Source of the DNA: Anaerolineales bacterium
GTDB taxonomy: Bacteria; Chloroflexota; Anaerolineae; Anaerolineales; E44-bin32
Assembly: GCA_040899905.1 (NCBI GenBank)
Contig: JBBDZX010000005.1
Coordinates: 698,199 to 762,198, forward strand
Reading direction: 5' to 3'
DNA: 64,000 nucleotides
In this document: one piece after another, positions 1 through 37,174 of the stretch
Layout: the number at the start of each line of letters is the position of its first letter
How positions within the stretch are numbered: the first letter of the stretch is position 1
The notes under the pieces: model-generated
What the model saw: the letters and a program-made list of their open reading frames with translations, nothing else
Databases searched by the model: none
What the model was told of the DNA's origin: nothing
Program-made: the position numbers and the translations under genes

Positions 1-1401
1 AAAGATCTCAGGACCACCGCCGCTCGGTTCTGCGGTAGGCTCGGCCTGGTCGGTTGGTGCGGGGGTTGTTTGCGCCTGAGTCTCGACCACCTGGGCCCCT
101 GGAAGCGCACTCGCGACGGTTTCGGGTACCCCGTCGAGGCTTGCCTGCATTGCATACAGAACGGATTGCGGCGAACTTGGCTCCGTAGTGAACGTCATGA
201 CCAGCTGATTGCCATTGTGAACGACCAGGCGGACACGGTGGGCACCAATCCTTCCAGCAGGCTCATCATTCGAATCTTCTCGAATCAGATATACCATGCT
301 GGGTTCGGACCACGAGGCGGATTCCCAGACTGCATGATAAATGGCCATCGGCCATCGGATTTGCCCTACGAAGTGAACCCGGCCCAGGCCGTCAGTTCCC
401 AGCCCGTCCCCGATCGCCTGGCCCTCCAGGCCATCAAAAATGAGCTCGGTTTCGGACCAGGTTAGCCCTCTGTCGAGTGAGACGCGATGTTCGCGTTCAG
501 TGTCAGAGTTCCCCGACCAGACGAGGTGCACTTGTTCACCGCGGACCACAATTCCGGGGTGCGCCAAACGCAGCTCATCGACCTCCTCGTCGGCGTAGTC
601 GACCGAAAAGGGATCCAACCACGTCTCGCCGCCGTCCAGGGAATGAGAGTAACGAACCCATCGACCTTCAGACTGCGAGGCTTCATCGTTATAAGACCAG
701 ACGAGATGGATGCCATCCTGCTCGTCCACGGCCATGTCCAACCAGGACGGAACAGCGGCTGGCGGGATATCGGGGTCCAGCCAGGTTGGGTAGGTCCATG
801 TCTTGCCCTGATTCTCCGAGAAGAAGTAGTAGATCCCCGGCTGGGGGACGGCGGTGGAATGGGCCGCTATCGGCTGGTCACCGAAATCCGCGTACACGAT
901 GTGAATCAGCCCTGCCTCGTCCACTGCCAGCTCAAGGCGCGCGGCCGCAACATCAATCCGGATTGGCTGCTGCCAGCTCCGCGCGGATGACGCCTCGCTA
1001 ATCTCAGCTTTGGAATACATGAGGGGGCCCGTCACCCCTTCCGACCACACCAGATGGAGGTAACCCTCTTTGTCCACAACGCCTGACAGTTCATCGATCC
1101 CGGTCCCGGGCCAGGAGGCGTAGATATCAGCCGGCATGGACCAGGATTCCCCGTCGTAGGTGGCGTAGTAAATGAGCGACCGCTGGTGGTCAAAGCCGCT
1201 TTCGGCCCAGAAGACATGGACGAGGCCAAAGCTGTCCGAAAGCATGACGGCTCCAGTGGCCTCGCCGTACGGGCTGGAAAGCTGGTATGGCTCTGACCAG
1301 TCCTCATCCTGAACCTGCGCGCTGGCACCTGCCCACTCGAAGAGCGAGAGCGCCACAAGAACTAGCGCTGCCGCGGACAACCAATGGTTCGTCCTAGTCA
1401 T
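1..1401 (-). CDS. Secreted BNR/Asp-box repeat (sialidase-like beta-propeller) protein; 3' end runs off the window
   Basis: Absent from the ORF track because it has no in-window stop. My translation from ATG 1401..1399 gives 467 stop-free codons. It begins MTRTNHWLSAAALVLVALSLFEWAGASAQ (signal-peptide-like). Repeated S-x-D-x-G-x-T-W boxes follow (SENQGKTW, SLDGGETW, SLDRGLTW). Plus-strand ORFs 70..465 and 487..990 are its antisense shadows. Confidence 0.75.
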   Translation of the reverse strand, partial: MTRTNHWLSAAALVLVALSLFEWAGASAQVQDEDWSEPYQLSSPYGEATGAVMLSDSFGLVHVFWAESGFDHQRSLIYYATYDGESWSMPADIYASWPGTGIDELSGVVDKEGYLHLVWSEGVTGPLMYSKAEISEASSARSWQQPIRIDVAAARLELAVDEAGLIHIVYADFGDQPIAAHSTAVPQPGIYYFFSENQGKTWTYPTWLDPDIPPAAVPSWLDMAVDEQDGIHLVWSYNDEASQSEGRWVRYSHSLDGGETWLDPFSVDYADEEVDELRLAHPGIVVRGEQVHLVWSGNSDTEREHRVSLDRGLTWSETELIFDGLEGQAIGDGLGTDGLGRVHFVGQIRWPMAIYHAVWESASWSEPSMVYLIREDSNDEPAGRIGAHRVRLVVHNGNQLVMTFTTEPSSPQSVLYAMQASLDGVPETVASALPGAQVVETQAQTTPAPTDQAEPTAEPSGGGPEIF

Positions 1402-1783
1402 GATTACCCCGATCTCGTCCGCGAAACTTGGCAAGACGGCTCGACGCGTAGACCCGGAGATGTCACATTTGGTGCAACAGTCCTGTAAGTGGATTGCATC
1501 TCGACCGTCGTGCGTTCGATGCTGTGACCTTGAACGGCTCGAACGCGGGCCTGCCCGCCTAGCCGCCCGCGCAATACTGGCGTTTCTATCAGCTCGATCA
1601 ACGCTTCGCCGCGAGCCCGAAGGTCTCCCGCCCCCACAACAGCCAACTCCGGGCCCGCTTCGATAATCTCATCAGCTTCTCCCCCCCGGCTGGCCATTTC
1701 CGCCAGGCCGGAGGCCGTGTACTCGAAAGGTCTCAGAGGTGAGAAACACATTAGGTCCGGCAGGCGAGGCGACGCGATGACGG

Positions 1784-2707
1784 TCACATCCGAAACGGAG
1801 AGGTGGGCGCTGACAGTACGCCGATCGACCAGTCCGGCAAAACGGACCCGCAGCCGCAACCCATCCTGACAACTTGCGAGCCGATAGGCCCGGCTCCGCC
1901 GGTGACAATCTCCCATCGGTAGCTGACTGAGCTTGGGATCCCTAGTGTCGCGACCGCTCCAACATAGCCGGCTGCAGGAACGAAGGACTCGGACCACCAG
2001 GCGGGGAAATCAAGCCCATCGCTCCTCAGGAATGGCGACCCTGATCGGTTTCGCCAGAATCCCGTTGTCTCAACCTCTTGAAACGGCATGGCCATCCCTA
2101 CGCCCATCGCCTTTACGAACGCTTCCTTCTTCGACCAGACACTGTGAAGCCAGGATGATCTCTCCCCTGCACTGAGCCGGTCGAACTCCGCCCACTCGCG
2201 ACCGGTGAGGATGCGGCGTGCAACCGCATCCATATCAATGTCCGACCGCGCCTCTTCGACGTCAACGCCAACCATCTCGAGCCTTGTGACGGCGATCACA
2301 CAGATAGTACCAGAATGGCCTAGGTTGAACTGAAGCCGGGAGGGCCCACCCCCATCTGCCAGCCTGGGCTTTCCACCTGGTTCAAGGGAGAACGCGAGCT
2401 CGTTGGCTGGCCGTTCCGCATACCGTGCCAGAATGATCCGCAATAGTCCCCGGCTTACCAGGAACTGATTGCGCCGCTCTTCGAAACGGAGCAGGTTAGC
2501 CCGCTCCAATTCTTCAGCGCTGAGAGTTCCTTTCAATCCCTCAACGGCTGTTCGAGGGAGGTTTGTGCGCGATATCCACACATGGACCTCGCCCGCGTCC
2601 AATGCTGGTGCGGCCGTCGCGTTCACCCGGAGGGTGCGAAGCACATTCTCCTTCCCTTTCAGCATGCCGACCTGTCCATGATTTGGATTGCGGTTTGACA
2701 CCTTCAT
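1784..2707 (-). CDS. Sfp-type 4'-phosphopantetheinyl transferase
   Basis: Internal start MKVSNRN of ORF 1784..3043; its ATG (2707..2705) overlaps the GT4 stop TGA (2706..2704) as ATGA. Motifs FNLGHSG and WSKKEAFVKA (W-x-x-KEA-x-x-K), with a typical tail GYVGAVA. About 40 extra C-terminal residues look non-native. Confidence 0.85.
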   Translation of the reverse strand: MKVSNRNPNHGQVGMLKGKENVLRTLRVNATAAPALDAGEVHVWISRTNLPRTAVEGLKGTLSAEELERANLLRFEERRNQFLVSRGLLRIILARYAERPANELAFSLEPGGKPRLADGGGPSRLQFNLGHSGTICVIAVTRLEMVGVDVEEARSDIDMDAVARRILTGREWAEFDRLSAGERSSWLHSVWSKKEAFVKAMGVGMAMPFQEVETTGFWRNRSGSPFLRSDGLDFPAWWSESFVPAAGYVGAVATLGIPSSVSYRWEIVTGGAGPIGSQVVRMGCGCGSVLPDWSIGVLSAPTSPFRM

Positions 2708-3990
2708 ATACCGGCGGGCAGGTGACGAACAAGGGCTGCGACAGGGGGTCTCGTATGACCAGCTGCTTGATTGAGGGCCACAGTTAGGTGTTCCATCATG
2801 TGGCTGATCGTAAACCGTTCTTCGACGCCTCTCCGACCGGCTGAAGCCAATCTCTGGGACAATCTTGGGCGCCTGCGGGCGGCCTCCAGCGTCTCCGCCA
2901 ATTCGACTGAATCCCCAACGCCCGCCAGCAACCCAGTTCGACCATGGATAACGATCTCTGGCAGCCCTCCGATGCGGCTCGCAACCACTAGACGTCCCGA
3001 TGCCATCGCTTCCAAGGCAGTTCTCGGAAAGGGCTCCTCCCAAAGCGATGGAATCACTACCACGCCATGTTGATGCATGAGGCCGGGAATTTCCTGCGCA
3101 GGCCGTTCGCCCAGGTACGTGACGACGCTGGCCAACTCGAGCCGATCCACCAGCCCAGTCACCTGGGAAATGTAGTCTGGGACACCCCCACCCACGATTG
3201 TGAGCCTCCAGGGACGATCCGGGGCGTTTCTTGCCAGCCTCTCCACCGCCCGCAGCAGGACGAACAGACCTTTTTCCGGTGAGATGCGGCCGACGTACAA
3301 GATGCGGCCTAGGAGATGAGGAGCCAGATCGACTTGGCTTCTGGATCTACTGAACCTCCCCAAGTCGATGCCGTTGTGAATCACGGTGGCGTGGGAAACT
3401 GGAATCCCATCCTCCAGCAACCTAGCTCGGACGCCATGGCTGACACAGTAGGCGTGGGGATACCCGAGCTCGATCTCTTCGGATGCCTCCAGAATCTTGA
3501 TCGCCAGGGGCGCCAGGGCACGGCGCGCGATTCGGGTGGCGAGGGTTCGTCCTTGAGCCCTCCAGTACTGGATATGCTGCGATGAGAGTGTCGGCCAATA
3601 ATCTGCGAACCTGTAGAGCACCCGCCCCTGCATAAGCTGCTCGCCGTCAGCCGCCAACTGCCTGGGGAGATTCCACATCCCCCAGATGAAGAGCACCTCG
3701 GGATCGAATGCCGCGATTGACTGACGGAGTGCCTGCCTGCTCTCGGCCAGGTCGGCTTGACGGTGCAGGAGCATCCGCCAGGCATTGCGTATCGGCGCCA
3801 ACTCCATCTCCAGGTTCAGCACCCTGGAGACGTTTCCATCGACAGTCGCCTCTCGAGCGCCGTGTTTGCCGGTGAGGATCCTGACCGTATGCCCCTGATC
3901 CGTAAGGGCCTTCACGGTCTCCAGGCAGCTCAGCTCCATCCCTCCCAATGAGTAGGGAGGGTAGAAGTTGGTTAGTACGAGAATGCGCAA
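2704..3990 (-). CDS. GT4-family (GT-B fold) glycosyltransferase
   Basis: N-terminus (M)RILVLTNFYPPYSLGGME. C-terminal E-x7-E region EPFPRTALEAMASGRLVVASRIGGLPEIV. Start chosen at TTG 3990..3988, 5 nt after GGAGA; the longest ORF would start at 4032. Confidence 0.9.
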   Translation of the reverse strand: MRILVLTNFYPPYSLGGMELSCLETVKALTDQGHTVRILTGKHGAREATVDGNVSRVLNLEMELAPIRNAWRMLLHRQADLAESRQALRQSIAAFDPEVLFIWGMWNLPRQLAADGEQLMQGRVLYRFADYWPTLSSQHIQYWRAQGRTLATRIARRALAPLAIKILEASEEIELGYPHAYCVSHGVRARLLEDGIPVSHATVIHNGIDLGRFSRSRSQVDLAPHLLGRILYVGRISPEKGLFVLLRAVERLARNAPDRPWRLTIVGGGVPDYISQVTGLVDRLELASVVTYLGERPAQEIPGLMHQHGVVVIPSLWEEPFPRTALEAMASGRLVVASRIGGLPEIVIHGRTGLLAGVGDSVELAETLEAARRRPRLSQRLASAGRRGVEERFTISHMMEHLTVALNQAAGHTRPPVAALVRHLPAGI

Positions 3991-4146
3991 TCTGTCTCCG
4001 TGGGTTTTGCTACTCCTGTTGGGGAGAAACAATCGGCTGCTAGGACTGCATACTTTGGCGGGTCTGACGAGTGGGGGTCCTGCGGCTTCGGACCGTAAGG
4101 ATGGGACTCGTTCAAGTAACGCTTCAGTCGCTAGAGGGAACGGAGT

Positions 4147-4878
4147 TCAAAGGTACTTGCGCCGCACGATAAGATAGCTTGCCGGAAAGCGCACAGGCCC
4201 ATCGCCAGCATCCTCGGCTGTAATGATCGAGCCTCTGCCTTGCTCCAGGATCAACCACTGCTCATCCGGGAAGTGGCGCTTTTGATCGGCCAACTCAAAG
4301 GCATTCAGCCTCACGTTCTCTGGCATTCGCCATGCTTGAAGTCTAGGTACTTCCTGGAAACACCGGGCCGCGGCCCAGCGTAACTCGATCTGGTAGAGCG
4401 TTCCGGTCTTGCCTAGCAGTACTCCTAGACTGGAGACATACTGATGGCGCATGTGGGGCCGGATTACATGGAAGACGCCCCGCACATAGACATTCAGGTC
4501 CCCGAGTTCATCATGCAGCGATTGGATAGCCCCGGAGTCCATTACGTCCACAACGCGAAAGTGTATGCCTGTGCCATCCGGTGAGATTGATCGCGCGAGC
4601 TTCACTGCCGAGGGCGACTTATCGATACCGATGACTGATTCCCAGTGACGCGCCAGTCCAATGGTCTGTCTTCCGGCACCGCACCCAAGGTCGAGCAGAG
4701 GAAGAGCCGGATCGAAATACGGCATGAATCGCGCGATATCCTCCTCTATGGCTCTCGCGGGGTCAGCGTCCCAGAGCGTGCTGTGGCCCTGGTCGGAAGC
4801 CAATACCTCCCCCCAGAAGTCTTCCCAGCCGTCGATCATTCGTGCCTGATTCCTGGAAGTAGATTCATGCCTTCTCAT
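4147..4878 (-). CDS. Class I SAM-dependent methyltransferase
   Basis: SAM motif I LLDLGCGAGRQT followed by VIGIDKS. Internal ATG 4878 (MRRHESTS) chosen; the N-terminal 117 codons of ORF 4147..5229 look non-coding. ATG 4839 is an alternative. Confidence 0.8.
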   Translation of the reverse strand: MRRHESTSRNQARMIDGWEDFWGEVLASDQGHSTLWDADPARAIEEDIARFMPYFDPALPLLDLGCGAGRQTIGLARHWESVIGIDKSPSAVKLARSISPDGTGIHFRVVDVMDSGAIQSLHDELGDLNVYVRGVFHVIRPHMRHQYVSSLGVLLGKTGTLYQIELRWAAARCFQEVPRLQAWRMPENVRLNAFELADQKRHFPDEQWLILEQGRGSIITAEDAGDGPVRFPASYLIVRRKYL

Positions 4879-5240
4879 CACCCTCGGTGATCCGCATCCC
4901 GATTTGCTACTCGATCCCGCGCTAGCAGCTGGCCTACCAACTGAACGCTCGTTCCGGGTCTGAGTGTAGATCGCTTCTAGACGGTCGACGGAGTGCTCCC
5001 AAGAGTGTGGCCGCCGCTCGTGCGGAGGTTGGCAGCCTCCACCACACGTCTGGCTTTCTTGGAAAGAAGGTCGATTCCATGCCAGATCTGGAAGCCCCCA
5101 ACGAAGATGACGATTGGCCCTCCGTCCAGCGCTAGTTTCGGATACAGGAAGGCTCCAGACTGCCCCAAACCGCCGGTACACCTGCGCTTTCAAAGTAGGG
5201 AGGCCTTTGCCTACGGTACCCCGAACCAATCATCACTCAG

Positions 5241-6320
5241 CTAACCAAAGGCGAATCGATAATATCTTCGCACGGGCAGTCGCTTCCACATCCACATCAA
5301 GATCAGTGGGCCCCCGAGACCCGCCAGGATCAATACCGCCAGGTAAACTAGCTGTGAGCCGAGGACCGCAGGTGTAAAGCGGTACATGATCACGGCTATG
5401 GAATAGGCGAAGGGAATATTCGCCAGATAGATTCCGAGTGAGTTTGCCCCGAGATAGGCCAGGTGCTTGGACATCGGAACCCGAGTCGCTGCGAATCCCA
5501 AGAAGCAAGGGGCAACGAGGGTGGCGTAGGTAATCCTGGCTATGCCCGGGTTATTCGGCCCCAGCCACTCCTGACCACTCCACCGCACAAGCAGCTCGTA
5601 TTCCACCAGGCTTAACGACAGCGTCGCGATGACTGCCCCCAGCAACCACCACCTCCTCCGCTGAATCCATTGCGAGGCTGCCTCGACATTCAGCCCTGCC
5701 ACGAGCCCCAGGCTGAAGTGCAGGATGCTCCCTGCGAAGATCCACCGCACGTTGTACTGGAAGATGAAACTCCAAATCGGGCCCTCCGCACCCATGAGAT
5801 AGAAGAACATGATGCTTTCGAAGCTGAGTTGAATGACCGCGGCACCCGCCAGGAAGAGCAAGGGTCTTGACTCCGCAATCCGGGCCAGTATCGGCGCCAA
5901 CAAGTACAGCTGCACAAGCACAACGAGATAGTAATAAGGATCCAGGATATCGTCGATCGATGAAGGGATTTTCCTCAAGAGGATATACCGAATCATGGTC
6001 CACAGAAGGAAGGGTACGAGAAGGACCTTGATCCGAGGCAGGACACTGTTCCAGGTAACACCCCCCGACTCACGCCGCGCCAGAAACGCAATGAAGAAGC
6101 CCGATACAAACAGAAATGCCGGTACCCCGAACGCGTCAAACTGGCGTGCGAGCATTAGGACATAGTACGCCAAACTTCCCAGTTGGTCGAAGTTGGGGAC
6201 GGCGACGTCCCGGTAGCGGTTCGTCCACTCGAACATTGCCTGCAGACCATACGCAGTTGCGTGATGAACCGGGACCATAAGCACTGCGAGTCCATTGAGA
6301 AGAAGAAGCCGTCGGGTCAT
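5241..6320 (-). CDS. Acyltransferase family 3 (OafA/YrhL-like) integral membrane O-acyltransferase
   Basis: About 10 predicted TM segments. N-terminal LNGLAVLMVPVHH-type motif typical of acyltransferase-3 proteins. ATG start. Confidence 0.75.
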   Translation of the reverse strand: MTRRLLLLNGLAVLMVPVHHATAYGLQAMFEWTNRYRDVAVPNFDQLGSLAYYVLMLARQFDAFGVPAFLFVSGFFIAFLARRESGGVTWNSVLPRIKVLLVPFLLWTMIRYILLRKIPSSIDDILDPYYYLVVLVQLYLLAPILARIAESRPLLFLAGAAVIQLSFESIMFFYLMGAEGPIWSFIFQYNVRWIFAGSILHFSLGLVAGLNVEAASQWIQRRRWWLLGAVIATLSLSLVEYELLVRWSGQEWLGPNNPGIARITYATLVAPCFLGFAATRVPMSKHLAYLGANSLGIYLANIPFAYSIAVIMYRFTPAVLGSQLVYLAVLILAGLGGPLILMWMWKRLPVRRYYRFAFG

Positions 6321-6438: not shown

Positions 6439-7836
6439 TCAACCTGGAGCTCGCCGTCCGATGTTCGCCGGGAAGATCGCTGCCTGCTCATCTGGAGTCA
6501 GTTCACAGGACGGCGCATTGAATTCCGGGCGGCGGATAACCGTGCTGCGGAGCATTTGGAAGTACCGCGGATTTGCCAGCAGATCCAGAAACCTATGGTA
6601 CTTCCTGTGATTCTCAAAGAAGTCCCCTGACAGGATGAAGTGCCCGGCTGCCATTGCATCCTCGTGTTCCTTGTACTCACCGAAGAACGGGAGCGCCTCC
6701 GCGAACGACACAGAGTGGGGGTTGTAGAACAGCGATATCAGGCGATACACGAAGCCGTAGGCTCCATTGATCTGCTCATAGGCTCTCGCGAGCGAACCAT
6801 TCTGATCCAGACTCCCGTTCGAGATCATTTCGACCAGGGCATCCGCTACCAGCCACGCACTCTTCATCGACAAGAAGATCCCACTCGAAAAGATCGGATC
6901 GATGAATCGGCTCGCGTCGCCAATCAGGGCGAACCGGGGGCCATACTTGACGCTGGACTCGTAGGAGTAATCCCCTTCTACGAAGACCTCCATCGCGATC
7001 TCCGCTCCCGCCAGGATCTCCGACACGGCCGGTGACTCGCCAATTTCGTCGCGATACACCGCTAGCTTCCAATCGCCCTTCCCATTGCCGGCCAGCTCGC
7101 GTTTCCGCTCCCGAAGGTAGCTGCTTTCCACCACGACACCAACCGTCACCTTTTCCGCCGAGAGGGGAAACACCCAAATCCAGCCCCGCTTCTCTCCACC
7201 CAGGTAGAAGATCAGCGAAGCACCCTGCTCAAGGCCAAAGGTCATCCTCTGAACTCCGGTCCAATGCGTCCACAAGGCGGTGCGCTCAAACCCGCGATTG
7301 GTCGTTCTCCACTTGTTCCTTACAGCCATGAACGTATCTCTTCCGCTGGCATCGATCAGAAACCGAGCCCTGATGACGCGCTCGCCCCCGCGAGGTCCGA
7401 CCGTTAATACCCGAACCTCGCCCGCTGATGTCTCAAAGTCAACATCCTTGACTCGAGTTCTCTCCCGAACTTCGGCCCCGCGGTTCCGGGCGTTTTCCAG
7501 TAGGAGCGTGTCGAACTGTTTGCGATCGACCTGGAAGGACAAGAAGGTCTCATCTTCGATGACATGGTTGAAGCACCAACTGGTCGCGCGCTGCCCGTCC
7601 CGGGTGGCGAATCGAACGGCAGGCTTGCGCACGAACGTCCGCTTCATCTCGTCAAGTACTCCCAGCTCATTGAGTATTCCGTAGCAGAATGGGAGAAGCG
7701 ATTCTCCGACATGCTCCCGGGGGAACTTCTCCTTTTCGAGAACTACCACCTTAAGCCCATTCTTCGCCAGGATGGAGGCAGCCGTCGTGCCCGCAGGTCC
7801 GCCGCCGATGATGGCCACATCCACGCTGCCTGTCAT
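6439..7836 (-). CDS. FAD-dependent halogenase-like oxidoreductase (paralog 1)
   Basis: VDVAIIGGGPAGTTAA (GxGxxG), FPREHVGESLLP, GWIWVFPL (WxWxIP variant with F for I), candidate Lys in FVRKPAVRF, and GDASRFIDPIFSSG. Start at ATG 7836 preceded by GGGAGA; the longest ORF starts at GTG 7860. Confidence 0.75.
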   Translation of the reverse strand: MTGSVDVAIIGGGPAGTTAASILAKNGLKVVVLEKEKFPREHVGESLLPFCYGILNELGVLDEMKRTFVRKPAVRFATRDGQRATSWCFNHVIEDETFLSFQVDRKQFDTLLLENARNRGAEVRERTRVKDVDFETSAGEVRVLTVGPRGGERVIRARFLIDASGRDTFMAVRNKWRTTNRGFERTALWTHWTGVQRMTFGLEQGASLIFYLGGEKRGWIWVFPLSAEKVTVGVVVESSYLRERKRELAGNGKGDWKLAVYRDEIGESPAVSEILAGAEIAMEVFVEGDYSYESSVKYGPRFALIGDASRFIDPIFSSGIFLSMKSAWLVADALVEMISNGSLDQNGSLARAYEQINGAYGFVYRLISLFYNPHSVSFAEALPFFGEYKEHEDAMAAGHFILSGDFFENHRKYHRFLDLLANPRYFQMLRSTVIRRPEFNAPSCELTPDEQAAIFPANIGRRAPG

Positions 7837-8032
7837 GTCCGTCTCCCTATCATGCGCCACCTCTTCGGCGACTCGCCGTTCGCCTGACCACTCCGACCAC
7901 AGGTACCATGCACGCGTACACCCTCATTGACCAACCCAACGTGCGGGCAAAGATCCATGACCCAGAGACTGCTCATCGCTGCGTACGAGGGCTCGTCTGT
8001 CAAACTCGGTAGCGAAGCGCCTCGGTAGGGGG

Positions 8033-8284
8033 TTAACTCTTGCTCTGCTTACGCTGTACGAGGGAACTCATTGCATTGATGGTCTCAAAATTCTCCGGCA
8101 CCACCTCGGTATCGTCGACCACCACCGAGAACTTCTCCTCGATGAACGCAACGAGACGCAGAATGCCGAGGGAATCGACAATCCCGCTTGCGATGAGGGA
8201 GTCTTCCCATGAGAGGGAAACATCCCCATCGGCCACCATAATATTCTGAACTATGAACTCTTCCAGAGCTTGGGATACATCCAT
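8033..8284 (-). CDS. DltC-like acyl/peptidyl carrier protein (carrier 1)
   Basis: About 83 aa. Phosphopantetheine site ASGIVDSLGILRLVAFIEEKF (D-S-L). AGGAGG lies 7 nt before the second ATG (8284). Confidence 0.8.
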   Translation of the reverse strand: MDVSQALEEFIVQNIMVADGDVSLSWEDSLIASGIVDSLGILRLVAFIEEKFSVVVDDTEVVPENFETINAMSSLVQRKQSKS

Positions 8285-8417
8285 TTCCATGCCTCCTGAT
8301 TTATGTTATACTAGGACGCACGCTCATTTGCGCGGCGGCTTTCGGTTTGTCCCGAGCGCCAACACGGGCCAAACCTGGACCAACCGATCAAGTGCAGTGC
8401 GGAGGGAGGGTAAGCGG

Positions 8418-27583: not shown

Positions 27584-27611
27584 TTCGAACCACTCCCAGA
27601 TGGACCAGCCA

Positions 27612-27803
27612 TCAGGAAAGCACAAACATCGAACACGGTCGATCCATGAGGACCATGCCTTGAATGCCGGATGCCTTCTCCAGGCCGAAGGCGCTCAGGA
27701 GGGTGGGCGTGACATCCATCAGTTGTGCACCCTCCACCCTGCCGCGGGCTTCCTCCGGATGCCGGAGGATAAAGACGAAGTCTTCAATCCCATCCGCCCC
27801 CAT
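27612..27803 (-). pseudogene. C-terminal fragment of a second alkaline-phosphatase-family gene
   Basis: The 63-aa ORF reads FILRHPEEARGRVEGAQLMDVTPTLLSAFGLEKASGIQGMVL. It parallels the C-terminus of the intact neighbour 28223..29713 (FILHDPAQKGNGARVTGAQLMDVTPTLLELFGIAVPSAVQGVSL). No catalytic N-terminal part is present. Confidence 0.55.
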
Positions 27804-27827
27804 TTGCCCCTTCTCCTACGGACGACC

Positions 27828-28181
27828 CTAGCGCCCAGAATTCCGGCGTATGTCGGAGGGCTTGCCGGCCCTCTCGGCTCGCGGCCACCCGCCTTCCGAC
27901 GTCCTCGCATGGGGAACCGGCCGTTCGCGGTTCCCGGCGTCCGTGGCCGCGGCTATTTCCATCTTCTGCGGCGCCGGCCCGACGGCCGCGGCCCTGGCGG
28001 ATCGAGCGCGCTGCGCGGCCTCCAGGAGACGCCGCACGGTCGCCTGCATGGTCAAAGTCTCGACCGCCAATTTGCGGGCACGTTGCACGATTGCCTCTCT
28101 CCCCGGTTCATCCTCGAGGTATGCCTGGACGGTGTCGGCGAGCCGATCTAGCGGTGCCTCGACCAGGTGGACGCCGGCCAT
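27828..28181 (-). pseudogene. Possible glycosyltransferase C-terminal remnant
   Basis: The tail of ORF 27828..28763 reads MAGVHLVEAPLDRLADTVQAYLEDEPGREAIVQRARKLAVETLTMQATVRRLLEAAQRA, like the last helices of GT-B enzymes. No N-terminal domain is present and the rest of the ORF is Arg-rich nonsense. Confidence 0.3.
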
Positions 28182-28222
28182 GCCGCAGTCGCGTCTCCAT
28201 GGGCCTCGGCTCCTCCGGAACC

Positions 28223-29713: not shown

Positions 29714-29794
29714 TGTCCTTCCATATTTAGAGGAGCCCAAAGCCGGCCCGGCAGCGATCCCGCCGGCCTGGAATAGGGTTTGGGACCAGCCAGT

Positions 29795-31459
29795 TCAGCG
29801 AGCTCTTTCGAGGAGGGCACTCATTGCCTCCGACCACGCGGCGAGGTCGTTCCGACCACGAGCTCGCCACCATTTGGCGTAGAGGCTTAATTCATGGGCG
29901 GCCTCGGGAATTGGCTCGAGAAACTCTCCCGCCCGGTCGAGCTGCCCGAGCCAGACCAAGTTGTATCCAAGGGCCTTGCCGACTCCACGATGTCCTTGTC
30001 CCCCCTCCCAGGCCGTTTGAAGGTATCGGGCAGCTTCGGTGAAGTCTTGCCTCTTCATGGCAAGGAGACCCATTCGGTAGTTCGCTCCGCGCTGAGTCGG
30101 ATCGAGCGCCAAGGCGGCTTCCAGCCACCATTGTGCGAAGGCCACGTCGGCCTCCGGACTAGGTTCAAGGGCTCTGTTTCCGGGCCAGCCGTCCAGCTCT
30201 TCCTGAGCCATGCGAACCGCACCCACGTTCGCCCACAGGCTGGCTGGAAGATGACTCAAAGGCCAGGCACCCGCCAGCATGACAAGGGCGAAAACCAGAA
30301 AGCCGACCGTTGAAGGAGACGCCAATCGCCCGGGTCCTCGCGGTACATGATTCCTCGCAGGACCTGGTGATAAGTCGGGAGGGCTTGCCTGCGGAGAGCG
30401 GCGCAGAGCGACTGCGAATCCCGGCCCCACGAAGAGGAATAACGCGCCGAGGGGTTCATGGAAGGGATCATGGACCAGGCCCAAGAGGATGACCCCCAGA
30501 AGGCTGGCGATGGCCGCGGTTCGGATAAGGCGGATCCTCCAGCTCTTGGCGTTGCTCAGTTCGCGTGACCCTGCCAGCGACCAAACAGCTCCCACAATGA
30601 TGGCAAGGTAAGTTGCCAAGGCGGGGAGGCCCTGTTCAATCACCAGATCAAGAAACAGGTTGTAGCTGCGCGTGAAGTACAGGAATGGCTGCAGCAAAAT
30701 GTAGCGGGAGTAGAGCCCGGGAAAGGAGCCCAGGCCGCCTCCCGTGATGAGGAAGTCCTGAGCGAGCCACCACCCCTCCTCTGCCAGCCGCGCTCGGTCC
30801 ATCAGGGCTGCCCATGCATTGGCCATCCCGCCGGACATGGCAAGGGCAGCCCCGAGAGCCAAAAGACCGGCGAAAGACACGCTCAAGACGGGGAGTCTTC
30901 GAGGCTGACGAGCCGTCGCCGTATGGGCGAGCCAGAGGACTGCACCGGTTGACAGGATGATCGCTACGACGGCCCCTCGAGAAACCGTCACGAGGAGCAC
31001 AGCCATGACAAGCAGACACGCCCCCAGCCAACCCATCCGGCCCACCAGGTCCCCCCGGTGCCAGGTGTAGACCGTGGCCGCGACTTGAAAGGGAAGCAGG
31101 ACCACAACCAAACCGATTTCCGTGTCCAGGTCCGGCACCGGGAGGCCGCGAACAACGACCCCGAACCGAGCGGCCAGAGGCGCCCCTGCTTGCCCATCTA
31201 AGATGGAAGTAAGGAGAGTGATGCCGGCAAGCGCGGCGCAGGCCTTGCCACAAAGCTTCGCCGCCTTCCAGAGATTTGGACCGGAGGTCCTTGCCAAGAC
31301 GTAGTAGATCGCGGCGGCCGTGACGATCGCCAGGAGTTTGACGACGGCCGTCGGCCGGTCGTACGCGGCCCAGTAGGCGACACAGGCGGTCAGCACGAAA
31401 CCGACAAGGGCCAGATCCTGTGAGCCCGTGCGGTTGGCGGCATGCCGAATCGGATTCAA
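29795..31459 (-). CDS. O-antigen ligase/polymerase-like (Wzy_C-type) membrane protein with C-terminal TPR domain
   Basis: About 10 TM segments, a VSRGAVVAIILS loop typical of O-antigen ligase-like proteins, and a C-terminal TPR-like ANYRMGLLAMKRQDFTEAARYLQTA. TTG start. Confidence 0.65.
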   Translation of the reverse strand: MNPIRHAANRTGSQDLALVGFVLTACVAYWAAYDRPTAVVKLLAIVTAAAIYYVLARTSGPNLWKAAKLCGKACAALAGITLLTSILDGQAGAPLAARFGVVVRGLPVPDLDTEIGLVVVLLPFQVAATVYTWHRGDLVGRMGWLGACLLVMAVLLVTVSRGAVVAIILSTGAVLWLAHTATARQPRRLPVLSVSFAGLLALGAALAMSGGMANAWAALMDRARLAEEGWWLAQDFLITGGGLGSFPGLYSRYILLQPFLYFTRSYNLFLDLVIEQGLPALATYLAIIVGAVWSLAGSRELSNAKSWRIRLIRTAAIASLLGVILLGLVHDPFHEPLGALFLFVGPGFAVALRRSPQASPPDLSPGPARNHVPRGPGRLASPSTVGFLVFALVMLAGAWPLSHLPASLWANVGAVRMAQEELDGWPGNRALEPSPEADVAFAQWWLEAALALDPTQRGANYRMGLLAMKRQDFTEAARYLQTAWEGGQGHRGVGKALGYNLVWLGQLDRAGEFLEPIPEAAHELSLYAKWWRARGRNDLAAWSEAMSALLERAR

Positions 31460-31686
31460 GGAACGAGGGTTGAACTTGGCTCTCGGCTCATCGGGTGGTC
31501 AGGCCACAAGACGAGAAGGCGACGCTCCGGCCGCGCCCCCTTAAGCCTGGAACCAACTCGCGATGACCGCCATTACCGAAGCTGGCCCGAATTCGGATGA
31601 GTGAGGGCCAAGCCTTGCTTACCTCGAAGCGAGCGAACTTGTCAGCGCCGGTCGAATCGGACTTGGGACCGGCGGCGCCTGCCGGC

Positions 31687-33357
31687 CTACGAGGTCGCCA
31701 GGCCACCGACCCCGGTGTCCGTCGACGCCCAGCTCAAGTGCTGCCAACCGACGTCGAGAGCTGTCCGCAGAGTCGACGGGTCGGAAAACAGCATCTTCAG
31801 ATACGTCACCATGGGGCCGGGGCGGAAAGCCCATTCCCGGAAGGCCCGTTTCTGCCAATACAACAGGCGCTCTGCGGACAGTCCCGGATAGTCAAGGACG
31901 GTCCCTTTGTCCATGTCCACCTGCTCCCAGCGGGTCCCTTCGCGGAACCACTTGTTCTCCACGACCTCGAAGTAAAACGGGGTTCCGGGGTAAGGGGCCG
32001 CCACGTGAAACAGGGCGATATCCAGTGGCAGTTTCTTGGCGAAGTCGATGGTCTGCCGGATGGTCGCCTCCGTCTCGCCCGGAAGGCCGATAATAAAGTA
32101 GCCCCAGTTCTTAATCCCCGCCTGGCGAGCCCACTTCAGCCCCCGCACGGCCTTGTCCGGGTAGGCGCCCTTGCGGGCGTGCCGGAGAATCTGCTCGTTG
32201 CCGCTCTCAATCCCCCAGGAGATCAGCCAATTCCCTGCCTCGGCCATGAGATTCAGCATTTCATCGTCGACGTAATCCACCCGGCTGTTGCAGGTCCAGC
32301 GCAGTCCGACCTTCTCGGAAATCATGAGCTTACACAGATTCATGACCTGTTCGCGATTGACCGTAAACAGATCGGCGTACATGTGGATGTTGTTGATCCC
32401 CTGCTTCTTCAAGACCCAGAGTTCTTCCACAATCTTCTCCGGCGACCGCAGGCGGGCGGAGAACTGGTAGCTGACGTGCTTGATGCAATACGTGCAGCCC
32501 GCGGGACACCCCCGGCTGGTGACGATGAAGGTGAAAGGACCTCGAATGAGCGGCATGCGATACTTCTGGAGCGGCAGGAGATCGTGCATCGGAATCGGAA
32601 GGTCATCGAGGTCCTGGATGAAGGGCCTCTGCTCATTGGTAACGATCTCATTGCCGCGGCGCCAGACCAACCCGCGGATCCCTTCCAGGATTGCCGTTCC
32701 GTCCTCGGTGAGAGACGGGCGGTACGCCGGGTCGTGCAGGTCGAAGATCCGTTGGATCTCTGGCGGGCGTTGGTCTGTCTTGCCCTCTAGATGGTCGACA
32801 AGATCCCGCAGGGTGAGATCCGGCTCTCCCAGCAGGACGAAGTCGAGCGCGGGAAATGGTCTCATGGTCTCCCGAGGGATAGCCGTGACATGGGTGCCAA
32901 AAGCGATGGTGAGGGCGCCCCGGGCCTTGGCCAGGAAACAGCCGTACATGTCGTTTTCCAGCGTCGGCGCGGTCACCTGGGTCAGGTAGTACTTGGGCTC
33001 GTACTTCTCCAGAAGACCCGCAAACTCCGGCCACCTCATGCGCTCGGCGTTGGCATCAACCACCGCCACCTTGTACGTCGGGTGTAGCAGGGCGGCCATT
33101 TGGGCAAGCGAGACCTGCGGCCAAACCATGTTTTCCCGCGTCCGCCGTCCGACCCGATGCTGGGTCCGAATCCACAATCCGCCATCGGGGGTCGGGGGGT
33201 TGACCAACAGCACGTCCACCGCGCCCTCCGGCCGGGGGCGATTTAGAAGAACGTGGCGCACGATCTCATCCGCGTTGGGGAAATTCGGCGCGGGCAGTTT
33301 CGGGAGCCTTCGGGCCCCGAGATTGAGACGGCGGACTTCCGCTTCACCGAGTGGCAT
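31687..33357 (-). CDS. B12-binding-domain radical SAM enzyme (class B, methyltransferase-like)
   Basis: N-terminal VDVLLVNPP...VAVVDAN cobalamin-binding-like domain and radical SAM cluster motif SRGCPAGCTYCI (CxxxCxxC). GGAGG lies 6 nt before the ATG. Confidence 0.9.
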   Translation of the reverse strand: MPLGEAEVRRLNLGARRLPKLPAPNFPNADEIVRHVLLNRPRPEGAVDVLLVNPPTPDGGLWIRTQHRVGRRTRENMVWPQVSLAQMAALLHPTYKVAVVDANAERMRWPEFAGLLEKYEPKYYLTQVTAPTLENDMYGCFLAKARGALTIAFGTHVTAIPRETMRPFPALDFVLLGEPDLTLRDLVDHLEGKTDQRPPEIQRIFDLHDPAYRPSLTEDGTAILEGIRGLVWRRGNEIVTNEQRPFIQDLDDLPIPMHDLLPLQKYRMPLIRGPFTFIVTSRGCPAGCTYCIKHVSYQFSARLRSPEKIVEELWVLKKQGINNIHMYADLFTVNREQVMNLCKLMISEKVGLRWTCNSRVDYVDDEMLNLMAEAGNWLISWGIESGNEQILRHARKGAYPDKAVRGLKWARQAGIKNWGYFIIGLPGETEATIRQTIDFAKKLPLDIALFHVAAPYPGTPFYFEVVENKWFREGTRWEQVDMDKGTVLDYPGLSAERLLYWQKRAFREWAFRPGPMVTYLKMLFSDPSTLRTALDVGWQHLSWASTDTGVGGLATS

Positions 33358-33399: not shown

Positions 33400-34596
33400 T
33401 CACGCGGCATTCCGATCCCGGGAGATGAGATCCTCCCGCTGACTGAGCTCCGCAAGCACGCGGAGGACGATCCAAGAAATCACGAGCTGGACGCCTACCA
33501 GAAGGAACATTGCGCTTCCCAAAAGGTAGAGCCAGAGCCGCTCCACGCTCCAGCCCTGCACACCAAGGGCCAGGCTGACCGCGGCGATGGTGCCACCTCC
33601 CGCCAGAAGCGCGACCCCCACCCAACCGAACGAATTCTCGAGGGGGTTCTTGAAAATAGGGCGGCCGAACAGACCCTGGCGCATCGGACGCTTGTGGAAT
33701 AGGGACACCAGGTAATTGAAAGTTGCGCCCAAGGAGAAAAGGCTGATCCCGCTAACCCCGCACACCATTCCGGTGTACAGGGCCACTACCCCCCAAGACC
33801 CAAGGATGGTCCGACCTGTCAGCCGGGCCGCCACCAGCCCAATCCCAACCGCGACCGCGATCCCCACCCCGAGGAGCCCGAGCGCTCCCAGGATACGGAC
33901 AGGATTGTAGCTCAGGGCGGTCCAAAGGATCGAATGCAGGAAAATCGAACCGTCCCGCACGACGCTCAATTTCGAGCGGCCCACGCGCTCGGCATATGGA
34001 ATTGGGACTTCGGCCATGCGGATGCCTTCGTGGAGAGCTCTCACACTCATGACCGGGGTCAAGTTTAGACCATCTGGAAGGGGATACAGACGGTCAACGA
34101 TCTCCCGCTTGAAGACCCGCATCCCGCTGGCACTGTCCGTCACCCGATGGTGCCCGAACGCCGTCAGCAATCCGGCAAAGAAGACGTTCCCCAACCGCCG
34201 CGTGATGGGCATCTTGGTGGCGGATCCTGCCATGCGGGATCCGATGACGAGATCCGCCCCATCGATGGCCAGCGCACAAAGCTGGGGGAACCATTCCGGC
34301 GGATAGGTGCCGTCGGCATCCAAAAAGCCAATCAGTTCGCCTCTCGCCCTGGAGAACCCGGTCTTGAGGGCCGCGCCATAACCTCGGTTCTGCGCATGCC
34401 GGACCAACTGGACCGACGGAATCGCTTCGGCCACGGCCGCGGTCTGGTCTCGAGACCCATCGTCGACCACCAAGACCTCGAGGTCATCGACGCCGACGCT
34501 TGCGAGATTCGCGCGGGCCGCAAGCACGCGCTCCGCAATCTCGGCAATTCCCTTCTCCTCATTATATGCGGGGATCACCACGGACAGAGTGGTCAC
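33400..34596 (-). CDS. GT2 polyprenyl-phosphate glycosyltransferase (ArnC/GtrB/DPM1-like) with C-terminal TM segments
   Basis: [32 protein letters not shown] (DxD), and four C-terminal TM helices. The GTG start overlaps the upstream stop (GTGA 34593..34596). Confidence 0.9.
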
Positions 34597-35351
34597 TCGG
34601 ATGGGTCCTTCTGCGCGTGATACACGGTCTCGGCGCGGGGCGGATCCCGGCCGTCAATTGCCTTCAGGACTCGGGCTGGCGCACCGCCCACGAGGCTGTG
34701 GGGGGGCACGTTCTTCGTCACCACCGACCCGGCCGCAACGACGGCGCCGCGCCCGATCGTTACGCCGTCCGTGACAATCGCCCCGGCGCCGAGCCAAACA
34801 TCATCCTCAATCTCGATCCCTTGGGCGGTGATCCCCTGCTCGACAAAGGGACGGTCCGGATCCGAGTACACATGATCCACGGCCAGTATTTGGACCAACG
34901 GCGAGGTATACACGCGATCGCCGACGCGGACCCCGCCTTGACCGCGAATCACCGTGTATTCCCCGATGAGCGAATCCCTGCCGATCCGAATTCCGGAGTG
35001 CGGTAAGTTCCGAAAATTGTAGACGTGGAGAATCGCGCCGTGCATCACGATCGTCCCGGAGCCGATCTCGACCCCTCGGGGACAAGCGTGCACGTACACA
35101 CCTTCGTCCAGATAACAACCGTGACCGAGCGATATATGGTCTGCGAACCGGAGTCGGACGCCTCGCTCAACGGCGGCGTGGCCGTCGATTTTCAGGATGA
35201 TTCGATAGAAGACATCCCGCAGTCCGATCCCGACCAGGGTTGGTATCCATCCCAGGCATCCGGTCAGGAATTGCTCCAGAAGGTAGCGCCCCGGGCTCGA
35301 CGCCTGACGCTGAAGGTAGAGGCCAAGGCCGGTTCGCCGGCAAGGAGTCAT
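34593..35351 (-). CDS. Left-handed beta-helix (hexapeptide repeat) acyl/acetyltransferase
   Basis: Hexapeptide repeats [44 protein letters not shown], similar to WcaF/LacA-like sugar O-acetyltransferases. Confidence 0.8.
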
Positions 35352-35481
35352 CTCGTTTCAGGCACGATGAGCAAGCGATCACACCCCCGGGCAGCCTGGT
35401 GCCAGGCGAGCTCCGCCCTTCCGACTGGTGTCGGATCGGCCCCCGCTCTAATCGCGCGGCCCGGACTACGCCTTGCCGGGC

Positions 35482-36036
35482 CTAGGCCCGGGCCCGCGTT
35501 GTAGGATCGATTGAGCCGGCGTCCAGCTCAACCGCAATGGGGCGGTTCCGAAGGAGCGCCAGCAGCACCAGGACGCGCTCCCTTCCCGAAATATACGTGT
35601 CGAAAATCCCCTGATACCCTTCGAATGGCCCTTGGCGGATCCAAACGGTGTCACCTCGCCGCAGCCGGAACAGGAAAGATTCCTGGGCTTCATTGGCGAC
35701 ATCCAAACGCTTCTGCAGAGAGTGCATCAGGGACTCAGGCACCGGGGCAGGCTCCTCCCCGAACGTGACCAGCCCGATGGCATAGGGCATCCAGCGAAAG
35801 GTTTGCGGGCTGAGAGCACCCAGGTCCACCTGGACAAAGAGGTAGCCGGGGAAGTAAGGCAAGATACGGCGCGCCCGGGGATTCACTGGCCGGACGCGCA
35901 GGCGCGGATAGAAGACTTCCAGCCCCAGACGCTGCGCCTGGCGCGCGACTACTTCTTCCTTCCGCGGTTTGCTTCTCAGGGCGTACCAGAGGAGCCCAGC
36001 CGTCTCGGTCGGGTGACCTTGCCCTAGCGATCCCAC
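35482..36036 (-). CDS. Specialised NusG paralog (RfaH/LoaP/UpxY-like antiterminator)
   Basis: NGN motif LLWYALRSKPRKEE...FPGYLFV and KOW motif GDTVWIRQGPFEGYQGIF. It is the first gene of the long minus-strand run. The start is uncertain: GTG 36036 chosen; the longest ORF reaches 36132. Confidence 0.75.
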   Translation of the reverse strand: MGSLGQGHPTETAGLLWYALRSKPRKEEVVARQAQRLGLEVFYPRLRVRPVNPRARRILPYFPGYLFVQVDLGALSPQTFRWMPYAIGLVTFGEEPAPVPESLMHSLQKRLDVANEAQESFLFRLRRGDTVWIRQGPFEGYQGIFDTYISGRERVLVLLALLRNRPIAVELDAGSIDPTTRARA

Positions 36037-36390
36037 CAGCAACCCTGCTCCCTCCGACCGCCGCCCATGGCGGTGGTCTGGCTCCCTCGGCTCCGAAATC
36101 CAGGTCCAGGCCGCGCGCGTTCCACCGTGCAACGCACCAGTCTGATCCCGGCTCGCCGCCCACCGGATGAGCCGGTTCGGCCCCTCGGGGTCTGCATCGC
36201 ACGCCCTGGAGGCTGAAGACCGAGAACTATTCGGTTGTTGTCAAACTCTGGAGTAGCGCCTGAGGGGCCGGTCTGGCTGGCAGTTGGCGCTTCCTCCGCT
36301 CCCACTTGTAACGGAGAGAACTACATAATTGCGGCCGGCCCTTGGGAAAAAATCCTAATCTCTTCGGCCCTAATTGTGCGGATTCTTCTT

Positions 36391-36436
36391 CCCAAATCAA
36401 ACCCCCGGGGGGATGATTGTATCTCATTCCCCGGGG
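36391..36436 (-). terminator. Rho-independent-type terminator after the orphan response regulator
   Basis: On the minus strand, CCCCGGGG - 16-nt loop - CCCCCCGGGGG is followed by TTTGATTTGGG, 25 nt after the regulator stop at 36461. Confidence 0.55.
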
Positions 36437-36460
36437 TGAATTCGTTGTCGAACGACGCGT

Positions 36461-37174
36461 TCAGCTGGCGATGCCGAGTCGCAAGGCGCGGATCGCGGCC
36501 TGGGTGCGGTCGGAAACTCCGAGTTTGAGGAAGATTTCACGAACATGCGTCTTGACGGTGTTGCGACTGACGGAAAGGGCGGTGGCGATGGCGGCATTGT
36601 CCATCCCTTCCGCGATCAAGGACAGGACTTTCAACTGCTGCGGGGTCAGCGAGGGTCGATCGAGGACGTCCGTCCTAGGCCTAGACCGTGGGCCGTCAGC
36701 AATCTCTCGCAACGCCATCTGGAGGATCTCACGGCTGACGATCGCTTCCCCATCGGCTACGGCCCGGATGGCCTTGGGAATGCTGGAGGGCTCGTCGTCC
36801 TTGGTGATGTAGCCGCCCGCGCCTAGAGCAATTGCCCGGGCCATGAAGTCGGGCCGATTGTGGGCAGTCGTCATAATGACATTCGCCTCAGGAAGCGCGG
36901 CGCGGATCGCCGCCAGGGCCTGCAGACCGTCCAGATCCGGCATGACGATGTCAACCACGACGACGTCCGGCGACAGCTCCTTGGCCATTTCTACGGCCTC
37001 CCGGCCCGTGGCGGCCTCCCCCACGACATCCAGGCCGTCGCGCTCAAGGACCATCCGCAGTCCCAGGCGGATGAGCTTGTGGTCGTCCGCGATCAGAACT
37101 CGCAGGGACCTGCGGGAGGCGCCTTGTGCATCGGACTCAGCGATGACGGGCAAAGGAGCTGTGTCGGTTTTCAT
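36461..37174 (-). CDS. NarL/FixJ-family response regulator (receiver + LuxR HTH), no adjacent kinase
   Basis: RVLIADDHKLIRLGL, VVVDIVMPDLDG, and HTH LTPQQLKVLSLIAEGMDNAAIATALSVSRNTVKTHV. Start chosen at ATG 37174 (MKTDTAP). Confidence 0.9.
   Translation of the reverse strand: MKTDTAPLPVIAESDAQGASRRSLRVLIADDHKLIRLGLRMVLERDGLDVVGEAATGREAVEMAKELSPDVVVVDIVMPDLDGLQALAAIRAALPEANVIMTTAHNRPDFMARAIALGAGGYITKDDEPSSIPKAIRAVADGEAIVSREILQMALREIADGPRSRPRTDVLDRPSLTPQQLKVLSLIAEGMDNAAIATALSVSRNTVKTHVREIFLKLGVSDRTQAAIRALRLGIAS

Follow-up and report, generated by a model that had tools for sequence, protein, structure and literature searches.

What does a long run of almost uniformly oriented genes behind a NusG paralog encode, and how far is it transcribed as one unit? 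The question is raised by a 64-kb stretch of DNA from an Anaerolineales bacterium (Chloroflexota; contig JBBDZX010000005.1), the whole of which is called the window here. A gene map built from the open reading frame listing and from Pfam, NCBIfam and PDB-sequence searches places 27 intact minus-strand genes from the NusG paralog (35482-36042), itself included, to position 1, with a single plus-strand gene interposed. This reproduces the count of at least 27 consecutive genes in a first-pass annotation, which had interpreted the cluster as one transcription unit of about 35 kb, dependent on processive antitermination, that makes and decorates a surface polymer. Given that about 70% of the genes in the remaining window lie on the minus strand, the chance of 27 of 28 genes sharing a strand is roughly estimated at 6e-4. 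Features below lie on the minus strand unless marked otherwise.

Our favoured answer, held with modest confidence, is that this is an envelope-glycan modification locus in which a NusG-paralog head precedes recombined cargo that includes a Dlt-like system for a predicted (halo)pyrrole decoration. The cargo consists of decoration chemistry rather than backbone synthesis, and the membrane and extracytoplasmic enzyme types are consistent with the surface-polymer role proposed earlier. That a NusG paralog stands ahead of polysaccharide genes is nothing new in principle; the phylum and the clade are new here. The unusual features are a conserved leader combined with variable paralog alleles, and a proline/pyrrole Dlt-like cassette accompanied by halogenases.

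The regulatory head and its NusG paralog

The cluster opens with a NarL/LuxR-type response regulator (REC and GerE domains; 36461-37354; Pfam Response_reg 3.5e-28, GerE 5e-17), followed by a terminator- or attenuator-like hairpin (36395-36436; 13 bp, GC-rich, then UUUGAUUU) within a leader of about 420 nt (36043-36460; defined by alignment and nhmmer), and by the NusG paralog itself (an NGN domain and a KOW-like C-terminus; Pfam NusG 3.9e-15). Regulator, hairpin, leader and paralog occur in the same order in five lineages with differing cargo, the head-bearing subclade comprising loci L081-083, L167/168, L169/170 and L171. The regulator is 77–82% identical in amino acids to the same-position regulator of L081-L083, with nucleotide identities of 86–89%, and is present in L167 too. 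The right flank (37.4-64 kb) encodes an ABC transporter, DAO, a histidine kinase, M23/LysM and UbiA proteins, all unrelated to the cluster, so the NarL-type regulator marks its upstream boundary. No kinase adjoins the regulator in the window, L081 or L167; the nearest annotated one, of the PAS-GAF-HisKA_3 type that usually partners NarL regulators, lies 12 kb away (49668-51248, plus strand).

The leader can be aligned end to end across the five lineages. Its nhmmer matches are confined to the DNA upstream of regulator-linked paralogs (E 1e-111 to 1e-144); neither the remaining 80 genome loci nor any other part of the window gave one. Its nucleotide identity is 83–92%, against about 61% for the adjacent paralog coding sequence. 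The comparison with L171, in which the leader reaches 92%, is the sharpest: identity of 92–99% over the 3' end of the regulator and the leader collapses to about 55–60% exactly at the paralog start (~35975-36050), and the paralog start codon is a sharp recombination breakpoint. What stays constant is thus the head, and what changes is the paralog allele and the cargo; in L167, for example, the genes behind the paralog encode BNR_2, Wzz/BY-kinase and SGNH-AlgX proteins. The hairpin (-24.7 kcal/mol, z -2.1) keeps 10 of its 13 pairs invariant across the five lineages and is followed by a U-tract. It had been annotated as a terminator (36391-36436) separating an orphan regulator from the cluster; hairpin and U-tract are real and conserved, but the regulator is not simply separate, being syntenic with the leader and the paralog.

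Invariant blocks of the leader include GGAGGAAGCGCC...GGCGCTACTCC and CCGGCTC...GAGCCGG. Among only five sequences, nine compensatory pairs were counted, against 3.4 ± 1.4 in shuffles and 2–6 in slid controls, a weak hint of a structured RNA. A search of the leader against Rfam at E <= 1 gave zero matches, as did a search of the whole window at the gathering threshold, and no tRNA was found in the window. The leader could act as a promoter, as a recruitment region or as a structured RNA.

The paralog probably starts at a TTG codon at 36042, rather than at the GTG at 36036 chosen in the first-pass annotation. Its NGN domain is clear (PF02357, 56.6 bits, cut-off 22.2), while the curated NusG model yields 37.6 (cut-off 135.7); among curated profiles, RfaH is the top match and LoaP the lowest. 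At E <= 1e-5, 2215 homologues and more than 550 genome loci were collected, essentially all of Anaerolineae/Anaerolineales, with the cultured Bellilinea caldifistulae among the carriers. In most loci of this clade, gap-pgk-tpi-(M50-like) genes lie upstream of the paralog gene, and downstream follow an NAD-epimerase/dehydratase and other polysaccharide genes, among them Wzz, TPR, Epimerase_2, CMP-sugar and PAPS (phosphoadenosine phosphosulfate) synthesis; the clade as a whole is genuinely linked with polysaccharide loci. At 54–58% amino acid identity, the window's paralog is as far from the regulator-linked clade as from the tpi-linked one. A k-mer shared upstream of 84 paralog loci (GATTTTTGGTTGTGGTTTTACC...) was set aside as a leader element, since it belongs to the coding sequence of the M50-like membrane protein gene. 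A GC-rich hairpin spans the stop codon of the window's paralog (35452-35501, -35 kcal/mol), with a z of only -1.7 in a GC-rich context, and is not conserved in L081.

Two known systems resemble this head. The RfaH/ops (JUMPStart) system of lipopolysaccharide, capsule and O-antigen operons in Proteobacteria likewise links a NusG paralog with long polysaccharide operons and places a conserved non-coding leader before variable polysaccharide genes; the window differs in that its paralog heads its own locus beside a response regulator, in lacking ops and in belonging to Chloroflexota. In the UpxY/UpxZ system of Bacteroides capsule loci, each locus opens with its own NusG paralog gene behind a required leader, and the alleles diverge among loci (PMC11685472). 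The window shares the locus-encoded first-position paralog, the leader in front of it and the diverging alleles. However, the next gene downstream encodes an LbH (left-handed beta-helix) acyltransferase rather than an UpxZ-type protein, and conservation lies in the leader and variation in the paralog, the opposite of the Bacteroides case. The searchable open-access literature on NusG paralogs contains no mention of Chloroflexi. If the proposed role is correct, locus-linked NusG-paralog control of long polysaccharide clusters reaches this phylum, and the head, with its regulator, conserved leader and variable paralog allele, offers a testable unit.

The Dlt-like core and its proline-type enzymes

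The question of what the cargo attaches to a glycan centres on a carrier protein (CP1, 19026-19301), a proline-type adenylating enzyme (Aden1, 17454-19016) and a 981-residue MBOAT-SGNH fusion (14444-17389). Downstream lie genes for a member of the acyl-CoA dehydrogenase family (ACAD, 12981-14159) resembling prolyl-carrier dehydrogenases, a second proline-type adenylating enzyme (Aden2, 10973-12625), a flavin halogenase (Hal1, 9597-10976), a second carrier (CP2, 8033-8290) and a second flavin halogenase (Hal2, 6439-7860). The nearest stand-alone PDB enzyme to both Aden1 and Aden2 is PltF, an L-proline-carrier ligase (1e-99 and 7e-96, respectively). Both carry the specificity code DLLYLALVCK, read out alongside a GrsA control that gave the canonical DAWTIAAICK. 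The code is exact in 30 of 37 homologues and exact or altered by one residue in 36. We take it to be the PltF-type proline code, which a search of the accessible literature did not turn up. DltA models give 308–311 bits, below the cut-offs of 476–560 that define D-alanine-specific DltA. CP1 has a GILDSL motif with the phosphopantetheine serine and matches ACP and DltC models below cut-off; the label 'ACP_for_OlsHI' (PMC12493201) was rejected for it, as that pathway consists of a GH3-like OlsH and an alpha/beta-hydrolase OlsI unrelated to this cassette. A carrier gene was also looked for between ACAD and Aden2 (12626-12980), and none was found.

Searches with Pfam, with NCBIfam and with a profile run against PDB sequences detected no MBOAT match, even at E <= 10 on five diverse transmembrane cores, and homologues of the fusion carry the JGI product names DltB/AlgI. 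A first AlphaFold2 model of the full-length protein from a shallow alignment reached a pLDDT of 53, and Foldseek recovered its SGNH domain only. With a diverse alignment, the transmembrane core was modelled at a pLDDT of 82.7 and matched HHAT (2.5e-6) and DltB (4.2e-6). All of its top 17 Foldseek PDB matches are MBOATs, including PORCN, LPCAT3, DGAT1, MBOAT7 and ACAT1, and N431 and H474 are invariant in the alignment. The predicted structure confirms by fold that the protein is an MBOAT with a C-terminal SGNH domain.

The enzymes next to this core suggest pyrrole chemistry. ACAD matches AnaB (4IRN, 2e-134) and the L-prolyl-carrier dehydrogenase 5ZW0 (2e-94) far above generic members of its family, and the NCBIfam models PigA (428.7, cut-off 500) and RedW (389, cut-off 650) below cut-off. 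Hal1 is closest to Bmp2 (5BVA, 8e-72), then to Mpy16 and PltA (~1e-33), and contains GGGPAG, WAWFIP and FIDPIFSFG; Hal2 contains GGGPAG, FIDPIFSSG and WIWVFP, a variant of WxWxIP. The combination expected of such halogenases (GxGxxG, WxWxIP and FxxPxxSxG together with similarity to carrier-dependent pyrrole halogenases) is present, with the noted variant in Hal2.

The cassette is widespread. Around the MBOAT-SGNH gene in 80 metagenome loci collected with this protein as query, a carrier adjoins it in 62, a proline-type adenylating enzyme in 42, an ACAD in 34, an SGNH/AlgX gene in 9 (directly following it in each) and a halogenase in 3 (L111, at 40 nt, L106 and L090). A distant clade with 41–50% identity is represented in metagenome-assembled genomes of Binatia, Deltaproteobacteria, Acidobacteria and Burkholderiales. 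One Burkholderiales genome has an isolated four-gene operon of MBOAT-SGNH, carrier, AMP-binding enzyme and ACAD, and one Acidobacteria genome the first three, without ACAD, inside a polysaccharide cluster. We found no published description of such a carrier/adenylation/MBOAT-SGNH system in the searchable literature. Two or three tandem MBOAT-SGNH paralogs per contig occur in L145, L156, L157 and L115, which suggests diversified acceptor or donor specificity. Genes for BNR-repeat (sialidase-like propeller) proteins flank the cassette in 12 other loci (e.g. L088, L095, L098, L099, L103 and L110), and one stands directly behind the paralog in L167.

Three groups of known systems share parts of this set. 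The Dlt system for teichoic acid D-alanylation (DltA/C/B/D) also combines a co-encoded adenylating enzyme, carrier, MBOAT and SGNH-like extracytoplasmic transferase. The cassette differs from it by its proline/pyrrole-type code, the fusion of MBOAT and SGNH, the frequent prolyl-carrier dehydrogenase, the occasional halogenases and its hosts, which are Chloroflexota, Acidobacteriota, Binatia and Proteobacteria. PatA/PatB, AlgI/AlgJ/AlgX and OatA pair an MBOAT or AT3 protein with an SGNH-type periplasmic glycan transferase, and an AlgX-like SGNH partner is present here too; the window differs in co-encoding a dedicated carrier and adenylating enzyme, and those systems are not known to use carrier-protein donors. 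The putative set of proline-adenylating enzyme, carrier, acyl-CoA-dehydrogenase-type oxidase and flavin halogenase matches the pyrrolyl-S-carrier cassettes of pyoluteorin (PltF/L/E/A), tetrabromopyrrole (Bmp1-4) and clorobiocin/coumermycin (CloN3-5) at E ~1e-33 to 1e-134. In the window the partner is instead a membrane MBOAT-SGNH protein, with no polyketide synthase (PKS), nonribosomal peptide synthetase (NRPS) or thioesterase, which implies that the acceptor would be an extracytoplasmic polymer. In clorobiocin and coumermycin the pyrrolyl group is transferred to a sugar hydroxyl, a precedent for pyrrole-2-carbonyl sugar esters.

D-alanine is the only group known to reach envelope polymers by a carrier-protein/MBOAT route. 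A proline/pyrrole version, if true, would add a further category of envelope modification, with hosts among the Chloroflexota, Acidobacteriota, Binatia and Proteobacteria of soils and sediments. Organohalogen (halopyrrole) biosynthesis would also acquire a role not known before, as natural-product chemistry put to use in surface decoration; this would bear on surface charge or hydrophobicity, on resistance to phages and antimicrobials and on where halogenated organic matter comes from.

Mosaic structure, transcript extent and competing explanations

To follow the history of the cluster, the window was compared by blastn with the contig Ga0209108_10000008 (loci L081 and L084) and its twin (L082 and L102). 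Nucleotide identity to this relative is 78% over the regulator, the leader and the 5' half of the paralog, 72% over the genes for LbH (34593-35351), a family 2 glycosyltransferase (GT2, 33400-34596) and a B12-binding radical S-adenosylmethionine (SAM) enzyme (31687-33357), about 69% and patchy over a Wzy_C/TPR membrane protein (29795-31459), and 72% over a phosphodiesterase of the Phosphodiest/alkaline-phosphatase family (28223-29740). At 27775 it jumps from 72% to 91%, remains at 90–92% from an SGNH protein (SGNH3, 26501-27625) to MBOAT-SGNH, and ends at 14323, leftward of which nothing is common to the two. The proximal genes from LbH to the phosphodiesterase follow the paralog in the same order in L081-L083, with 51–83% amino acid identity, and the LbH-GT2-radical SAM trio is found about 5 kb behind the paralog in L020, L032, L036, L038, L053 and L061.

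The joints between these blocks bear the marks of exchange. A recombination scar (27626-28222), which involves the repeat D3, contains a C-terminal remnant of a GT1_2 gene (27903-28178, corresponding to L081 6437-6711), along with the 3' end (27626-27775) of a second phosphodiesterase gene, of the L081 type. The gene for the SGNH/AlgX-like protein (22429-23715) sits in a window-specific insertion (22082-23727) that is absent from the relative and flanked by a direct repeat of about 72–100 nt (copies at 22010-22081 and 23761-23832); a piece of the 5' region of the adjacent sulfotransferase gene (20956-21969) is duplicated there (21612-21665 and 23675-23728). The G+C content at third codon positions (GC3) is 0.82–0.87 in ACAD, Aden2 and Hal1, compared with 0.60–0.79 in the remaining cluster genes, a difference in composition suggesting that the ACAD-Aden2-Hal1 segment (9597-14159) was acquired separately from a donor of higher G+C content. 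The cluster is a recombination mosaic of modules with differing histories, rather than a single evolved operon, and shows how such a supercluster is assembled, with modules swapped at conserved anchors and scars left behind. Past MBOAT-SGNH, the relative has further genes in the same orientation, for a Wzm/Wzt ABC exporter, a pyruvyl transferase, GT4 glycosyltransferases, a sulfotransferase and an epimerase, and is co-directional over about 29.5 kb from its paralog; this continuation supports a long cluster behind the paralog, an envelope polysaccharide as its subject and exchangeable distal content. In the 227-nt gap of the window at 31460-31686, between the radical SAM and Wzy_C/TPR genes, the relative has a gene resembling UDP-GlcNAc 2-epimerase (L081 14513-15628), and the gap may be a deletion scar.

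How, then, would such a locus work? The paralog would be recruited within or just after the leader and keep RNA polymerase elongating at least to the MBOAT-SGNH/Hal1 region (~26 kb). By analogy with DltA/C/B/D and PatA/B, Aden1 and Aden2 would charge the small carrier proteins with L-proline, ACAD would oxidise the prolyl-S-carrier to a dehydroprolyl or pyrrole-2-carbonyl thioester, and Hal1 and Hal2 would halogenate the carrier-bound acyl group. The MBOAT domain would then move this group across the membrane, and the SGNH domain, aided by the SGNH/AlgX protein, would esterify it onto an extracytoplasmic glycan. The (halo)pyrrole-2-carbonyl decoration is predicted because Bmp2/PltA-like halogenases stand beside the cassette. 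In its most specific form, the proposal is that a widespread, undescribed Dlt-like acylation system puts proline-derived acyl groups on extracytoplasmic glycans. At this locus the product would be a pyrrole-2-carbonyl ester bearing chlorine or bromine, and the genes would be expressed behind locus-linked NusG paralogs that form a new clade in Chloroflexota and have a conserved leader of about 420 nt; this we put forward tentatively, as a possibility with less than even odds.

Several findings weigh against this mechanism and the locus function it serves. Antitermination and transcript length are argued from analogy, and the paralog scores below cut-off with the RfaH models (TIGR01955, 80.7 against 144.5; NF006534, 62.8 against 124), with UpxY (NF033644, 64.8 against 100) and with LoaP (NF033641, 33.8 against 125). 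A divergent paralog allele beside a conserved leader makes the cognate site uncertain. No ops element (GGCGGTAGnnTG) occurs with up to one mismatch on the sense strand of 36043-36460, the only nearby match lies on the opposite strand at a frequency within chance, and the Bacteroides opsX core pattern (YGCGNAGCR) is absent from the leader. The earlier failure to recognise an ops-like element agrees with the pattern search; the leader is nonetheless strongly conserved along its entire length. Downstream, gaps of 200–600 nt could break the transcript and the convergent plus-strand gene could interrupt transcription. A hairpin just past the SGNH/AlgX stop codon (22375-22435; -37.4 kcal/mol, z -5.75, with none of 200 shuffles equally stable) lacks a U-tract and is part of the window-specific insertion; it may have come in with the inserted gene as a terminator or as an mRNA stabiliser. 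As to the chemistry, proline specificity is predicted from a code match and similarity to PltF, no flavin reductase was identified, the presence of two adenylating enzymes and two carriers is left unaccounted for, and CP1-Aden1-MBOAT_SGNH occurs in the close relative with neither ACAD nor halogenase, so the pyrrole add-on might feed a different product. Finally, the window contains no initiating phosphoglycosyltransferase, flippase or exporter gene.

Whether one transcript, dependent on processive antitermination, spans all of the roughly 35 kb between the paralog and the window edge can be judged from the same features, and we regard this strict version as unlikely. It draws on the co-direction of 27 of 28 genes, the many overlapping junctions, the relative's co-directional cluster behind its paralog and the absence of terminator-like sites from the intergenic gaps of the cluster. 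Scans for sigma-70 promoters and intrinsic terminators gave no excess over shuffles, an outcome compatible with read-through, though weak evidence in a phylum whose signals are uncharacterised. Against it stand the strong hairpin past SGNH/AlgX, six wide gaps inside the cluster (459, 534, 597, 284, 227 and 212 nt), passed over in the first-pass annotation and in two cases containing gene remnants, and the lineage-specific and compositionally distinct content left of 14323. The convergent plus-strand gene, between Hal1 and CP2, adds to these, as it has a promoter-like site of its own with a TG-extended -10 (8284-8312), the two together spanning 8284-9206. A single transcription unit of about 35 kb, as first annotated, is thus unproven, and both the mosaic structure and this convergent gene speak against it. 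A paralog-dependent unit plausibly reaches down to about Hal1, and the block from CP2 to the BNR-repeat gene is probably transcribed at least partly separately, its end from GT4 to BNR being tightly coupled by short or overlapping junctions.

The nature of the product leaves two further alternatives to set beside glycan decoration with a (halo)pyrrole group. Proline adenylation, a carrier, a prolyl-carrier dehydrogenase and a Bmp2/PltA-like halogenase form the classical halopyrrole natural-product set, and with a phosphopantetheinyl transferase (PPTase) also encoded, the product might be a diffusible glycoside or glycolipid of a halogenated pyrrole, made under a LoaP- or TaA-like paralog; antibiotic clusters under NusG-paralog control are known from literature cited in PMC11685472. 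We consider such a secondary metabolite improbable, the least probable of the readings compared, since the searches detected neither a PKS nor an NRPS condensation domain nor a thioesterase, the partner is an MBOAT-SGNH fusion of the type that acylates extracytoplasmic polymers, the cassette elsewhere sits within polysaccharide clusters, LoaP gives the lowest score of the paralog, and most of the genes are common to relatives without halogenases. Slightly less remote, though still unlikely, is plain prolylation with unmodified L-proline in the manner of D-alanylation, which would make ACAD, Aden2, CP2 and the halogenases an unrelated neighbouring pathway. That the closest relative has neither ACAD nor halogenase within 10 kb of CP1-Aden1-MBOAT_SGNH, that the Acidobacteria locus lacks ACAD, and that the add-on differs in GC3 and brings an adenylating enzyme and a carrier of its own all speak for it. 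However, ACAD adjoins the fusion gene in 34 of the 80 loci, the tight four-gene operon included, and halogenases abut it in the three loci noted above.

Other cargo enzymes and gene junctions

The first-pass annotation listed an unusually diverse enzyme chemistry, and nearly all of its families, three SGNH domains among them, are confirmed at family level; methyl transfer by the B12-binding radical SAM enzyme is not established, the nearest curated family being HpnJ. It also proposed a GT2/GT-C pair. The GT2 (PF00535, 1.2e-35) does best match polyprenyl-phosphate sugar synthases, its top NCBIfam matches being AglJ, dolichyl-phosphate hexose transferase, ArnC, PgfS and PpgS, all under cut-off, while the GT-C-like assignment (19514-20953) goes back to a single weak match to PMT_2 (E = 0.019, 15.6 bits, cut-off 26.1), with no NCBIfam match for the gene. 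The supposed O-antigen-ligase-like/TPR protein falls marginally below threshold, with a Wzy_C score of 30.0 bits (cut-off 31.7).

A conserved trio at 24019-26390 encodes a small transmembrane protein (26073-26390), presumably SxtJ-like, a NodU/CmcH-type carbamoyltransferase (24250-26073), for which an exact-sequence look-up gave no match, and a 60-residue DUF5989 protein (24019-24201; PF19451, 1.4e-17). The protein of the plus-strand gene (about 8442-9206, the start being approximate) is signal- or anchor-bearing, hence secreted or anchored, with an S/T/P-rich linker. No family match was obtained for it, and its C-terminal domain of about 170 residues, which matches no Pfam family, looks by eye like a carbohydrate-binding jelly-roll. 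Beyond Hal2, the cluster continues with an AT3 acyltransferase (5241-6320), a SAM methyltransferase (4147-5229), a GT4 (2704-4032), the PPTase of the Sfp/HetI type (1784-2707), a GT1_2 fragment (1404-1787) and a secreted BNR-repeat protein truncated by the window edge (1-1401).

All five tight junctions named earlier are real, with one correction: the junction at 26073 is TGATG, a 1-nt overlap, rather than ATGA or GTGA. ATGA overlaps occur at 2704 and 10973 and GTGA overlaps at 34593 and 1784, and 2-nt spacers separate the genes at 20954 (TGA-tc-ATG) and 1404 (TAA-tc-ATG).

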